Source: Octopus vulgaris (taxonomy: Eukaryota). Taken from it: a stretch of DNA of 64,000 nucleotides. Location: positions 21,700,001-21,764,000 of the forward strand of contig OX597825.1 of NCBI GenBank assembly GCA_951406725.2, read 5' to 3'. The notes below the pieces were generated by a model, which saw only the letters and a program-made list of their open reading frames with translations, was not told where the DNA came from and ran no database searches. Positions within the stretch are counted from its first letter, which is position 1; each line of letters starts with the position of its first letter. The translations under genes were made by a program, and so were the position numbers. Shown here piece after piece: positions 21 through 31,300 of this stretch.

Positions 21-195
21 GTATAAGGGTGAAAAGGAACACACGAGTTGATATATATGAAAAAACAAGTCAAAATAGAAAATGCCAGAATAATTTTATA
101 AAGAACATTTCAGTACCGGTTTCGTTCATTTTGAGACCTTTTCAACTGTAACGATTAAATAATTAAATTTAGAAAAATTAGAAGAAAAGTTTTTA
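21..195 (-). mobile_element. PLE-type terminal repeat remnant in (TA)n with minimal hammerhead motif (U3:A8 variant)
   Basis: Minus strand of 111-148 reads cag-TTGAAAA-ggtc(tcaaaat)gaac-GAAA-ccgg-TA-ctg; flanked by (TA)n on both sides. Confidence 0.55.
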
Positions 196-770
196 TACAC
201 ATATATATATATACAATATGTATTCCTCTATATGATATATAATTATATAACTATACATGTATACACAAACACTCACGCACCTACACACACACACACACAC
301 ACACATTCACATATTGAATATTGTTATTTCACGATATCATTGGAAACGATCAATTTGGTTATCACCCCTGGTTTACACATAATCTATTTTGTTGAATGAC
401 GTTAAATGGCGGACTAAAAGGAGAAACGTCAGGTTACTGTTTCTTGAGTTAGTCGTGTATTTTGATATTACGGTTGCCAATACATTTCTCTTCTATTAGA
501 TTTTCTCCACCAGAGGCTCTGAACTGAACAGTGCATTGAAACGAAACAATTGGTTATTATTCGGTGCCACTACCCTATACACAAAACGAAAAGTAAAGTT
601 GTTGTATTCCTTTCTGCTCACTTTTTTAATTAGCATTTAGTGTATTCCGGTCAATTAGGAACCACTTGGGTCTATATAAATTTATACTGCTAAATAGAAT
701 ACATGTGCATATACATGTGTATTGTTGATATAGTTGTGGCAACTCAGGTGCGATGTATAAACATCAAATA

Positions 771-1157
771 CTAGCAGTATCGCCCGGCGTTGCTCGAGTT
801 TGTTTCGACACTTTAGAATTGGAATTTTTGAAAAGTAAAAGATTTGCATTATGTAGCTTGTTATTTTTTTTAAGTTAACATTTTTCTGGTCTAAATACAC
901 CGGAAAATGGTGACACAGCAGTCAAAAATCGTAAAAAATAGTGATTTTCAAAGAAAAAAAGCACCTTTTTGATGTAAATAATTTTTGGTGTTAACATGGT
1001 CCGATTTGAATTTTTTCTTCTACGGAAGGAAGAACAAGCCTTCTTCTATCATACTCTCAATTTTCGTCAACTTGAGCAGCAGGGTCTCGGAGAACATAGT
1101 GTTAGTTGAAGGTTACCAAACCTGCCATACACAGACAACTTCAGCTTTATATATAGA
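771..1157 (-). mobile_element. Non-autonomous Helitron, copy 1
   Basis: Minus strand begins TCTATATAT and ends with a GC-rich subterminal hairpin (cgagcaacgccggg) then CTAG|T; homologous to 33752-34137 and 58481-58869. Confidence 0.75.
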
Positions 1158-2929
1158 AAGATTACATCTATTTCTTTGCATAATGTAGTTTCGATCTGTA
1201 GTCGCTGGGTTAAGGATCCAGGGCGCTTCTACCACGACACTCTACTCAACAAGAGACTACATAACGTGTTACTTCTAATATTGCCTGTTCTGTGTTACAG
1301 TATTTCTATTACATCATCGATTATATGTTATTTATTTATACATCTTTCCATACATTGAACTGTTGCAAATATACGAAATACAGAAACTAATCTACATGCT
1401 GCTGCTCTGAGATATTAATTTACTTACTAAATGGTGACATTTCCCTCTGTCGATAATCCAAAAGTCACATTTGACAAACCATACACATAGATAATTTTTT
1501 TATGGATGCCACTTCGGTTGACATTTTCAAATCAGCCGGAAGCAAATCAATTCAGTAAATGTTTCCCTTCACCAGAACAGCATAATAAGCAAGCTTACTA
1601 GTCTTACTAAATAAGTAAATGTAGCACACTTCATGGTGAATCGCTGAAGCACGATTAAACGATCGATCTTACATGAATATTAGACTACTTCGTAATAATT
1701 TTGATTACACACGGTTCTTGCTGTGCTTGTTGTTGGTGTTGTTGTTCTCCAGCCTGGACTATTGTCTGATTGTTAGATATATTATAATTGAACTTACGTT
1801 ATCCGGTATTTCTGTCGTGTAAAATGACAGTTAAATATAGTTTAATGGAGGATTATCTGGTAATTCACGTCGACATGATCATTCTAGCTGGTGGAATGAT
1901 CACTTCGACGTTCTTACTCTAGTCCAAGTTGCTTGCTTTTTAGTACAGGTCGCAACAAGAAAGCGTAGAGAAATAGTTGGGCTTGGCTTTTCTGCTGTAT
2001 ATAATTAATATTGTTGCGAATACTGAATAACAAATGAAGTGTTTATCAACGTTTTCAACAGTGTTCATGTAGTTCTCTTGTATTTCTGTTACTCAGTCAA
2101 TGTTACATTTGTAGTTTTATATATTTCGTGTCATTGACATCATGTAAGGTAGTTTGAATGAAAGCCAAACTGGCACCCACAAAAAAAACTAAAAAAAAGC
2201 AAACCCAGAAAAGCAAAATAAAACAAAAACAAAAGAAAACAAAAAACAACGACATTGCATTCCTACTTCTCTTCTGATTATCATCTCAGAATTTATTAGT
2301 TCTTCCTTAATGAATAAAATATTTATCTCATTCATATTAATCGAAATCTATTTAGTCGAGACAAGTCTCCAGACGAACACGATATAAGCCAATGTTTATA
2401 ATCTCAGCTATTCAGAAATATGACTCATGTCTAGCTGAGTGTCGCAGTCTATCTGTGACAAATTGCAAGATAAGAGATCGTAAAATTATATGTTTCATCA
2501 CAGACTGATTGAGATGAAATCCGCACAATAATATCATGGGATTAAAACGGTATTTGTGGTGAATTAATTATGCTTCACATAGAGACTGAGTTGTCAATTA
2601 ATTTCAGAAACGATTAATTCTAAGGTAATGATTAATAATCAACTTTTGTTTACTAAATTCTCCTAATAAATATATATTAAATCAATATATTAAATGAATT
2701 AATGAGAAATGATTAGGTAATTATTATATTATTACAAATATTTTTTTATAAAGATAATTAAACAATATTAGAAATATAATAGTAATAAAACAAATAATAG
2801 AAATGTAGCCAAAATTTATAGCATTCATACAAATTTCGAAGTGGAAAAGTTTATAATATACTTAATATATGTACGTGATATATACAATGCAACATTTATT
2901 TATATTTTGATAACTTCTTATTTTCGTGA

Positions 2930-28682: not shown

Positions 28683-29540
28683 GGAGGAGCGGTGCTATTA
28701 AGTTAGATATGGTCTGCATCAATATTTGGTCGAAACATATCTAAGTAATGTAAGTCATATAAATTATCTAATTTATATATATATGTGAGTATTGAAATGG
28801 ATATGTTTATCAGATATATGTTTTTAAATAGAATCATTTATTTCATATTCTTTGATAATAACGTGATATACCCTATGTGTAAACCTATCAAACCGTAGTA
28901 CAAGACTTACATATAATGTAATTGTTCCCACTCGGACGCAATTTTATACATACTCACATACATACTTTCATAAATATATATACATATATGTATATACACA
29001 TGTACACACATATACATTTGAATATATATGTATATATATATATATATATATATATACATAAATATGCATATATATACGATAAATATTTATGTATATAAAT
29101 ACATGTACATGCACACACATACACGCGCACACACACAATCACACACACATACATACACAAACACACACACACACACTCGCACATATATATATATATATAT
29201 ATATTACGAAACAGCGGCAGGTAATAAAAGTGCATTTTCAAACTTTAAATCCTTTGAGCGTTTAAATTTATATATAATTTCTTGATAGGTTACAAATTAC
29301 TTTTCTATTAAAGTACAATCTATCGTCTTGAAACTGGAGATCATATTAGGCTTGCGGAATGAGTTTAATCAAAACTTTTCCCGATATGATTGTTGAATAC
29401 ATTACAAGCGCAGTGGTTAGCAGCTTGCTTCTCTCACATGGTTCTCAGTTCACTTCCACTGTGTGGCACCTTTGGCGGCCCCAGTCAAATGACTGGAACA
29501 AGTAAAAGAAAATAATAGAATATATCTATATATATATATA

Positions 29541-29810
29541 CCGGAGTAAACACATAAATGTTAAACAAGGTGGAAAAAAGAGCACTCAAATACCAGTGGT
29601 AGAGTAATATGCTTTATTTAAAGCAGCAGAAAATTCAACAAAACCTGTTACTCTGAGTTGCACGTTCCCGTTTGCACGTTCCCGTTTGCACGTTCCCGTT
29701 TGCACGTTCCCGTTTGCACGTTCCCGTTTGAAAAAACTGTCCGACGAACGGGAACTTGAAACTCAGAGTAATAGGTTTTGTTGAATTTTCTGCTGTTTTA
29801 AATAAAGTAT
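29541..29810. mobile_element. Head-to-head PLE-type pair (U4C family) in (TA)n with five 14-bp repeats at the junction
   Basis: HHR motif 29736-29775 on plus; left arm is its reverse complement; ttgcacgttcccgt x5 at 29658-29727. Confidence 0.75.
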
Positions 29811-29884
29811 GTATGTATATATATATATATATATATATATATATATATATATACATATATATATATACATATATATATATATAT

Positions 29885-31300
29885 CTAAAATTATAAAAGG
29901 AAATAAGCACACTTATATAGTCTTAATATTTCGACCGGTTTCGCTATCGCTATTCATGATATTATGTTTTACTTATTTGAATATGCATTTTGTCTTAAGA
30001 AGAAATTTTGTCCACGTTGTGTGTGATGTAATTCACGAGTGAATGACTTCACAAATAAATAAATACAGGGAGGTAATTGGTTATCGTTATTCTTGTTATT
30101 ATTATGGGTAAGGGAGATAACTGTTCAGCTTTCGGTAATGGTAGGGGAATATATATGTACATACAAAGAAAAGTTTCGAAAACCTTGTTTTAGTGAGGGG
30201 ATTTATGTACAGTGATGTAATCGTCAATTGAAATATGTAAAAAGATAAAAGCTGGTTATGCGTGCATATTAAGACGTGTGCTATACTTTTCAATGAAAAA
30301 AGTTTCCTTATTTAAACGTTCTTGTAGAAAGATTGTGTCATTGCACTGGTAGAAGAGGAAGACTGTGAAATTTGGTCTGATGTTATCTGCACATTTTTCT
30401 ATATGTTCCCTAAGCGGAATTTGCCTGTATTGCCGGAAACGGATTTGCACTTTATATAGACTGGTTCTCTTTCTCAAGGTCATGCTCGTTTGTCCAATAT
30501 AGTAGTGTCCGCAACCCGAGTAGGTAATTACATAAATTAGGTTCTCAGAAGCACAAGTAAAACTAGTTTTAATTGTGAAACTCTGTCCTTGTTTGAAAAG
30601 GAAATCCGAGCTTTCAAGTAGGTTGGGGTAGGTCCCACAGTTTGGGCGTTCACAGTTTTCAACCGTTGATTTCTTGGTTGTTTTCTAAAGCTTCGCATTT
30701 GTTAGTAGTCTCTTTAGCTATTTGTCTTGTTTTATGCATTTGATTAGTTTGTGTGTTTTCAGGATGTCATTCATTTTTGGATCTCTAGTTAGTAAAGGAA
30801 GAGTTTGCACAATAGTGTTGAATGCCTCACTGTTTCTGGGGTTGGGTGTTGATATAAATAGTAATGTTTTAAGTTGAGGTGTGGTGCTATGTTTTGTTGT
30901 TCTTAGTGTTTTTGTATCTAATTTTTTGGTACGTTTAATTCCCTCGTCGATAAGTGAGGATGGATATTGTCTTTCAATAAGCGTTGTTTTGAGGCCTTGA
31001 AGACGAAGGTCCCGAGTTGTTCTATCAGACACTATTGTGCAAATCCTTTTTGCCAAATGAAAAACATAGCACCACAATAACAAGAATAACGATAACCAAT
31101 TACCTTCCTTTATTTATCTACTTTTGAAGTCATTCACTCGTGAAATTCATCACACACAACATGGAAAAAAAATTCTTAAGAAAAAATGCATATTCAAATA
31201 AGCAAAACATAATATCATGAATAGCTATAGCGAAACCGGTTGATATATTAAAAATTATATTACAACTATGTAAGTGCGCGTATTTTCCTTTTTTAATTTT
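29885..31300 (-). mobile_element. 5'-truncated Penelope-like element (Neptune-like) with inverted terminal repeat
   Basis: GIY-YIG ORF remnant flanked by inverted pLTR copies each carrying an A3:U8 hammerhead motif. Confidence 0.8.
30256..31070 (-). pseudogene. PLE RT thumb, linker and GIY-YIG endonuclease pseudogene
   Basis: One frame with two premature stops (near 30719 and 30686): LAKRICTIVSD...ERQYP...CERPNCGTY...TCASENLIYVITYSGCGHYYIGQT...R...EHIEKC...ERLNKETFFI. Confidence 0.85.

Follow-up and report, generated by a model that had tools for sequence, protein, structure and literature searches.

Minimal type-I hammerhead ribozymes located near the 3' end of Penelope-like elements (PLEs), elements encoding a reverse transcriptase (RT) and a GIY-YIG endonuclease, were described by Cervera and De la Pena (2014; PMC4209133), with a palindromic stem III for dimers, a G10.1-C11.1 pair, an optional extra base after A9, and solo as well as opposite-strand copies. 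Among the 56 motifs of their Fig. S3, 53 carry C3:G8, two U3:A8 and one (Saccoglossus) U3-G8, none having a purine at position 3; the same source reports about 1,300 matches with U3-A8 in Schistosoma mansoni PLEs. The first natural covariation from C3-G8 to U3-A8 is that of Perreault et al. (2011; PMC3088659), whose available text names U3-A8 alone and no purine at position 3. In the anole Poseidon element PAc, a hammerhead-bearing PLE with a one-end tail and AT-rich targets, either single change, C3G or G8C, abolishes cleavage, which returns in part in the engineered G3/C8 double mutant (Frangieh et al., 2024; PMC11167929). Short non-coding hammerhead elements thought to be mobilised by PLEs are known as non-LTR (long terminal repeat) retrozymes (PMC7229834; Li, Clavereau & Pollet, 2026, 10.64898/2026.07.22.740005). 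Here we analyse a 64,000-nucleotide stretch of the Octopus vulgaris genome (contig OX597825.1, positions 21,700,001 to 21,764,000; hereafter the window), in which PLEs and their non-coding derivatives carry predicted minimal hammerheads with all four Watson-Crick pairs at core positions 3:8.

The octopus motifs differ from these systems in several respects. Compared with the motifs presented in the available text of PMC4209133, A:U and G:C are here the states of whole families, U:A dominates the class with an ACSSGT stem III, and stem II goes down to 2 pairs. Families with a purine at position 3 also set them apart from the motifs named by Perreault et al., and G3:C8, a laboratory double mutant in PAc, is here the natural state of several families, in elements that, unlike PAc as described, carry a Neptune-type Cys linker. 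Natural A3:U8 or G3:C8 families were not found in the literature searched, the coverage of which left out the largest survey of PLE hammerheads (Lunse 2017), where such variants may be held. U3:A8 is already published; the novelty may lie in the natural A3:U8 and G3:C8 families, the content of Lunse 2017 being the main doubt.

The assembly comprises 2.8 Gb in 227 contigs, and the window is microsatellite-rich with 34.6% G+C. A preliminary description of this DNA had listed seven hammerhead cores, all of which were found at the positions and on the strands given there. The window was scanned with a strict descriptor that left N3 and N8 free and required stem II, GAAA, a palindromic stem III, H17 and a stem I of at least 3 pairs. 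It returned five matches (145-, 24655-, 24693+, 26645+ and 31217+), four of them Watson-Crick, as compared to a mean of 0.23 (maximum 2) in 100 dinucleotide shuffles, where Watson-Crick matches averaged 0.08 (maximum 1). The 29957- copy satisfies the descriptor once stem I is allowed at 2 pairs. Two of the seven copies are decayed: in the 4458 copy stem III has eroded and U16.1 is missing, although its family has an intact 8-nt palindrome and C17, and the 16099 copy is a decayed relative of the 24655 element. In addition, 24655- belongs to a palindromic insertion, and the opposite arm, 24693+, has a decayed G3-G8 core, a counter-example missing from that description. An Rfam scan of the window (E<=1) gave no hammerhead, canonical ones included; the 150 matches listed are microsatellite-driven miRNA/snoRNA hits.

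The odd cores are the states of whole families and not copy-specific decay. In the aligned rows, which are best matches that lean toward the query and count a few loci twice, the 3:8 state was G:C in 41/46 and A:U in 33/36 rows of the respective families (U:A and C:G families, Table 1). Family consensuses, proposed earlier as a check, showed no reversion to CUGANGA, the canonical C3/G8 form, which occurs only in the 4458 and 26645 families, the others being U:A, A:U, G:C or U-G. The remaining core (U4-G5-A6-N7, A9 and G12-A13-A14-A15.1) is present, and when it was left free in two PLE clades (C and D, below) changes outside positions 3, 7 and 8 were only scattered; position 7 varies freely within these families. 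Family alignments show stems I and II, with stem II closed by G10.1-C11.1, and a palindromic stem III of 4, 6 or 8 nt depending on the family, which ends in U16.1 with H17 next. The 4458 family has an additional A ahead of G12, and one U-G subfamily requires a bulged U in stem I.

The genome-wide search with free N3:N8 that had been proposed was run with the pattern N3-TGA-N-N8-A..G..CGAAACSSGTH, which covers the ACSSGT stem III class only, the reversed pattern serving as control. With pyrimidines (Y) and purines (R) at 3:8, matches (control in brackets) were 7,432 (67) for Y:R, 1,424 (47) for R:Y, 177 (66) for R:R and 200 (36) for Y:Y. The R:Y class includes 118 G:C, 35 G-U and 36 A-C matches, leaving about 1,235 A:U by subtraction; read by eye, the first 100 of the 7,432 Y:R rows are 84 U:A, 9 C:G, 5 U-G and 2 C-A. 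The first 100 of the 177 R:R rows are chance or scattered single changes of big families, and the first 100 of the 200 Y:Y rows mostly reflect a false start upstream of a genuine U:A core; no R:R, Y:Y, A-C or G-U family was present among the matches listed. A G-U subfamily bridging G:C and A:U was considered and not found, the 35 matches being scattered. Only 119 matches combine C:G with ACCGGT, nearly all from a 360-bp tandem family, and a CUGANGA search indeed misses thousands of U:A variants as well as the A:U ones, as predicted. C:G is nevertheless not rare overall, given the abundance of C:G families that have other palindromes (4458, 26645). Separately, loci L344, L345 and L395 hold retrozyme-like tandem hammerhead repeats of 359 and 361 bp arranged as inverted arrays; their cores are C:G and U:A, followed by similar stem II sequences. 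Another locus, picked by eye (L394, G000:C1:7826600-7829700), is one inverted insertion with U:A and A:U arms and the same stem II, possibly a chance double decay.

The assignment of the motifs to PLEs was borne out, since they lie in terminal repeats, 150-900 nt downstream of RT/GIY-YIG open reading frames (ORFs). A young PLE has the 145- motif at its 3' end; in the full-length copy (L261), two direct repeats spaced 4.4 kb apart are accompanied by an inverted arm and a 705-aa ORF for RT and GIY-YIG. The motifs 29957- and 31217+ bracket a truncated PLE in which remnants of the thumb, Cys linker and GIY-YIG are left. RT followed by a C-terminal GIY-YIG is found in L261 and L208 (PF00078, PF01541) and, by tblastn, in clade D, and direct and inverted pseudo-LTRs with TA-rich insertion are seen in L261 and in the window element (inverted arm). 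Hallmarks described for PLEs include truncated arms in inverted orientation, tails and TA targets (PMC8557442, PMC11167929), and the CX4CxxC linker present in these PLEs is described as a Neptune/Nematis feature (PMC8557442). Membership of Naiad was rejected, the endonuclease being C-terminal. L208 itself (7488-9830, minus strand), a very young PLE found via its protein and independently of the motif, has many identical intact 781-aa ORFs and a long 3' untranslated region with repeated GATGACGTC motifs, and its end likewise bears a U:A core accompanied by stems II and III.

A maximum-likelihood tree of 30 thumb/endonuclease regions (family representatives out of 97 rows, rooted on L187, with 4 labels assigned by hand) resolved clade A with U:A (L208 as sister), clade B with A:U (support 98), clade C with U:A (100) and clade D with G:C (100), an A:U row being nested inside clade D and U-G rows inside clade C. 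With all seven core positions free, the first 100 of 223 clade D matches were, by eye, 58 A:U, 35 G:C, 2 A-C, 1 G-U and 4 other, and the first 100 of 2,564 in clade C were 89 U:A, 9 U-G and 2 others. Parsimony requires at least three double changes at 3:8, two of which require transversions. The U:A and A:U copies of the window belong to one PLE radiation, and the families are hence not all unrelated, contrary to the preliminary description. That description had also taken the repetition of variants across copies as evidence; within one family it is not independent evidence because it is inherited, and what stands is about three to five independent switches. Tandem families also show C:G and U:A cores ahead of similar stems, a switch that was not counted firmly because their units align at the motif only.

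The G3:C8 motif (24655/24693/16099) is part of a non-coding element of ~215 nt with fixed ends. A pattern with positions 3, 7 and 8 free found 1,290 copies genome-wide (control 0), with G:C in 92 of the first 100. Copies without G3 (117, looser pattern) mostly retained C8, as decay predicts, and a candidate A3-A8 subfamily was rejected, its 4 cases among the first 100 of these 117 corresponding to the rate of double decay. In an arbitrarily chosen 1 Mb, a homology search recovered the element at 4 insertions with 6 arms (5 G:C, 1 G-U), which would extrapolate to ~11,000 insertions genome-wide if that rate holds; no copy of the A:U family of the window was found in that 1 Mb. The element occurs as single copies or as head-to-head palindromes made of a short arm and a long arm with a ~60-nt tail, and at 15/30 loci both flanks have at least 8 letters in common, two of these cases being TA runs only and the count being without a shuffled control. 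Single or head-to-head inverted copies, fixed ends and a minimal G3:C8 hammerhead distinguish it from non-LTR retrozymes as described, and it does not form direct tandem arrays at the 30 loci read, which are single or inverted, one with a second partial direct match. No autonomous partner was found, the 30 loci from a 3'-end search stopping at the same 5' point or earlier; two distant inverted pairs were rejected as partner, being a larger palindromic repeat with the 215-nt element as passenger. L332 and L333 are near-identical 4-kb palindromes (97-98%) that contain tandem units internally and the 215-nt element close to each end. In this element (24527-24880; L001-L030, L231-L260) the short inverted arm has a nearly constant end in most palindromic copies, the central loop of the palindromes may lie either way round with respect to the long arm, and the 5' start is similar to the 3' end when the latter is reverse-complemented; these three features fit priming at two fixed internal sites.

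Altogether, these data suggest that the motifs are minimal type-I hammerheads of PLEs and of their non-autonomous derivatives, in C:G, U:A, A:U or G:C families, and that the pair has probably been kept by selection, as the RNA would need to adopt the active fold and cleave itself at one stage or another of transposition. Two transcripts, or two tandem repeats, would pair via the palindromic stem III, probably aided by the element's own protein as in the anole element, whose hammerhead cleaves only with that protein (PMC11167929). The 3:8 pair would form in the active state and position the 2'-OH of nucleotide 8, so that base identity would be free and pairing would not. Cleavage after H17 would then trim read-through or tandem transcripts, and a lineage could move between pairs by way of intermediates with weak activity; the amplified U3-G8 subfamilies may represent one of these.

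The whole pattern on which this interpretation draws is one of location, core states at the family level, changes that come in pairs along the protein tree, and absence of mismatched or G17 families. In the genome-wide search, G17 gave 101 scattered matches (control 36) and no family, vs 9,233 for H17, with families for each of A17, C17 and U17; G17 is reported to impair minimal hammerheads, and the 3:8 pair to form in the active conformation (PMC3884650). A full pairwise scan of a type III hammerhead lists the G:C swap as the only rescuing double mutant (PMC9901934), and homodimer folding predicted an intermolecular stem III in 5/9 natural copies. Assembled contigs of four runs, which we guess to be RNA, cover the A:U element and carry no information on ends, strand or cleavage.

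Several observations weigh against this interpretation. U3-G8 accounts for 248 matches genome-wide (control 18), mostly in two near-identical, recently amplified subfamilies. N3 is U in all 30 G8 arms read, linked flank changes separate them from their U:A sisters, and paired arms agree; the wobble was therefore already in the master element, and a strict Watson-Crick pair is not required. Moreover, there are few independent switches, and double transitions such as G:C to A:U and C:G to U:A keep pairing automatically. A DNA tree of clade D from flanks alone has poor resolution (7/39 rows dropped for low identity), its A:U copies do not form one clade, and it is too weak for the events inside clade D to be counted. 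Since most families were found via a pattern that fixes U4, G5, A6, A9 and GAAA, invariance at these positions is partly built in. Structurally, stem II has only 2 pairs in clade B, stem I of the L208 hammerhead is weak, the lowest-energy dimer lacks a paired stem III in 4/9 copies, including the G:C 215-nt element, and the A:U and U:A forms may be slow, because only the G:C swap rescued in the pairwise scan as described (PMC9901934). One copy of a very young PLE (L165, 1660-2942, minus strand) has no hammerhead core within 1.5 kb downstream. Catalytic mutants of the anole PLE insert normally in vitro, and no reads end at its cut site (PMC11167929).

The claim that compensatory double changes point to selection for catalysis survives in part: the changes between related families are compensatory, and the requirement for a strict Watson-Crick pair does not stand, U3-G8 having been amplified. 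The wobble is consistent with a pairing requirement, since no other single change was seen to be amplified and it has no G-U counterpart. The young clade C subfamilies with amplified U3-G8 are found at L306-L323, among which L322 (G000:C8:63727772-63734347) has two direct repeats 4 kb apart and an inverted arm; a second U-G subfamily has A17 and is known from pattern lists alone. At L165, where positions 950-1330 were also noted, a G+C-rich hairpin lies within a CA-rich 3' region; there is no relevant Rfam match.

Sequence alone cannot separate selection for cleavage from retention of the same fold as a protein-binding site. An alternative is thus that the hammerhead fold, 3:8 pair included, persists because the PLE protein uses it for binding or positioning, or because it serves dimerisation, cleavage being incidental. 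We consider it unlikely. The protein dependence of the anole hammerhead, the behaviour of its catalytic mutants and the lack of cleaved ends in RNA data all speak for it, as do the slow cleavage of minimal PLE hammerheads alone (PMC4209133) and the success of the U-G subfamilies. Yet exclusion of G17 across families that use A, C and U is a cleavage-site rule, free base identity at 3:8 is hard to square with a sequence-specific protein contact, and the pair is one that forms in the active conformation.

That selection was weak, and that a few master elements with paired variants were amplified through founder effect and transition bias, is in our view quite improbable. The small number of switches, the poorly resolved clade D flanks and the amplification of a non-Watson-Crick state speak for it. 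Without selection, however, single changes should far exceed double ones among families; the sole amplified single change is a wobble and the matches listed contain no R:R, Y:Y, A-C or G-U family, and the moves from U:A to A:U and from U:A to G:C require transversions at both sites. The notion of chance matches or copy-specific CUGANGA decay, for which one could cite the two decayed copies and the 14 matches of the strict descriptor in the arbitrarily chosen 1 Mb, with no G:C, no A:U and 6 mismatched, was ruled out as hardly credible, given fixed family states, controls of 0-8 matches vs 118-1,290 in the families, and the arms of the G:C element recovered by homology in the same 1 Mb. The strict descriptor proved too strict for decayed copies and missed known family members.

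The features of the window are collected in Table 1. Apart from these, positions 2933-3846 hold two tandem copies, 94% alike, of a 452-bp unit.

Table 1. Hammerhead-bearing elements and PLE remains in the window (positions within the 64,000-nucleotide stretch).
Feature	Positions	Strand	Evidence and details
Pseudo-LTR (3' end) of a young clade A Neptune-like PLE; insertion at a TA run	17..213	-	95% identity to 3' repeat of full-length copy L261 (encodes RT PF00078 and GIY-YIG)
Minimal hammerhead, U3:A8	111..148	-	N3 145, N8 140, G12 123, palindromic stem III 120-115, A17 114; predicted cut 114/113; family rows U:A 44/44
Palindromic two-arm insertion, C3:G8 hammerhead family	4193..4560	.	Self-match; + arm core 4458 (stem III decayed), - arm core 4295 (A6 changed); family C:G 27/28
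Old decayed copy of G3:C8 non-autonomous element (N3 16099)	16091..16262	+	70% identity to 24685-24866; fails strict descriptor
Short inverted arm of 215-nt non-autonomous element, G3:C8 hammerhead	24527..24664	-	N3 24655, N8 24650, G12 24628, stem III 24625-24620, U17 24619
Long arm of 215-nt element with ~60-nt tail, core decayed to G3-G8 (N3 24693)	24685..24880	+	Family state G:C
Inverted arm of canonical C3:G8 family, core 26230	26130..26269	-	Self-match, family alignment
Canonical C3:G8 minimal hammerhead (N3 26645, 4-nt palindromic stem III, U17)	26606..26739	+	Descriptor; family C:G 23/24
5'-truncated Neptune-like PLE, clade B; terminal pseudo-LTR with A3:U8 hammerhead (N3 29957, G12 29942)	29875..31055	-	91% identity over 1.2 kb to L264; 64% DNA identity to clade A element; tree
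Cys linker and GIY-YIG endonuclease fragment, stops inside	30256..30684	-	PF01541 E=0.0046, under curated cut-off; 53% identity to clade A protein; translation
RT thumb region fragment of clade B PLE	30718..31113	-	tblastn coverage vs L261 protein; alone no Pfam match
Inverted pseudo-LTR arm with A3:U8 hammerhead	31070..31312	+	N3 31217, N8 31222, G12 31232, stem III 31235-31240, U17 31241

The occurrence of all four Watson-Crick 3:8 pairs, and of an amplified wobble besides, among the minimal hammerheads of PLEs is a real, well-supported variant. This bears on the need to cut in vivo, PLE hammerheads being slow alone and not required for insertion in vitro. Recurrent natural compensatory change at a pair found solely in the active fold, together with the exclusion of G17, is evolutionary evidence for a selected active state. 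The natural families also supply ready-made variants and single-mutant controls, and they bring to light a 215-nt non-autonomous element of high copy number whose core is G3:C8. Most hammerheads of the ACSSGT class escape motif-based censuses here, with 119 canonical ones (ACCGGT only) vs more than 8,000 others. Tentatively, and with odds we place somewhat short of even, a single PLE radiation may record the walk of a catalytic tertiary pair through U:A, A:U and G:C, with U-G as a stepping stone, which would make its A3:U8 and G3:C8 hammerheads the first known from nature and amount to evolutionary proof of a need for PLE ribozyme cleavage in vivo. If this is true, calls of 'hammerhead-less' PLEs and CUGANGA-based ribozyme counts would be substantially wrong.

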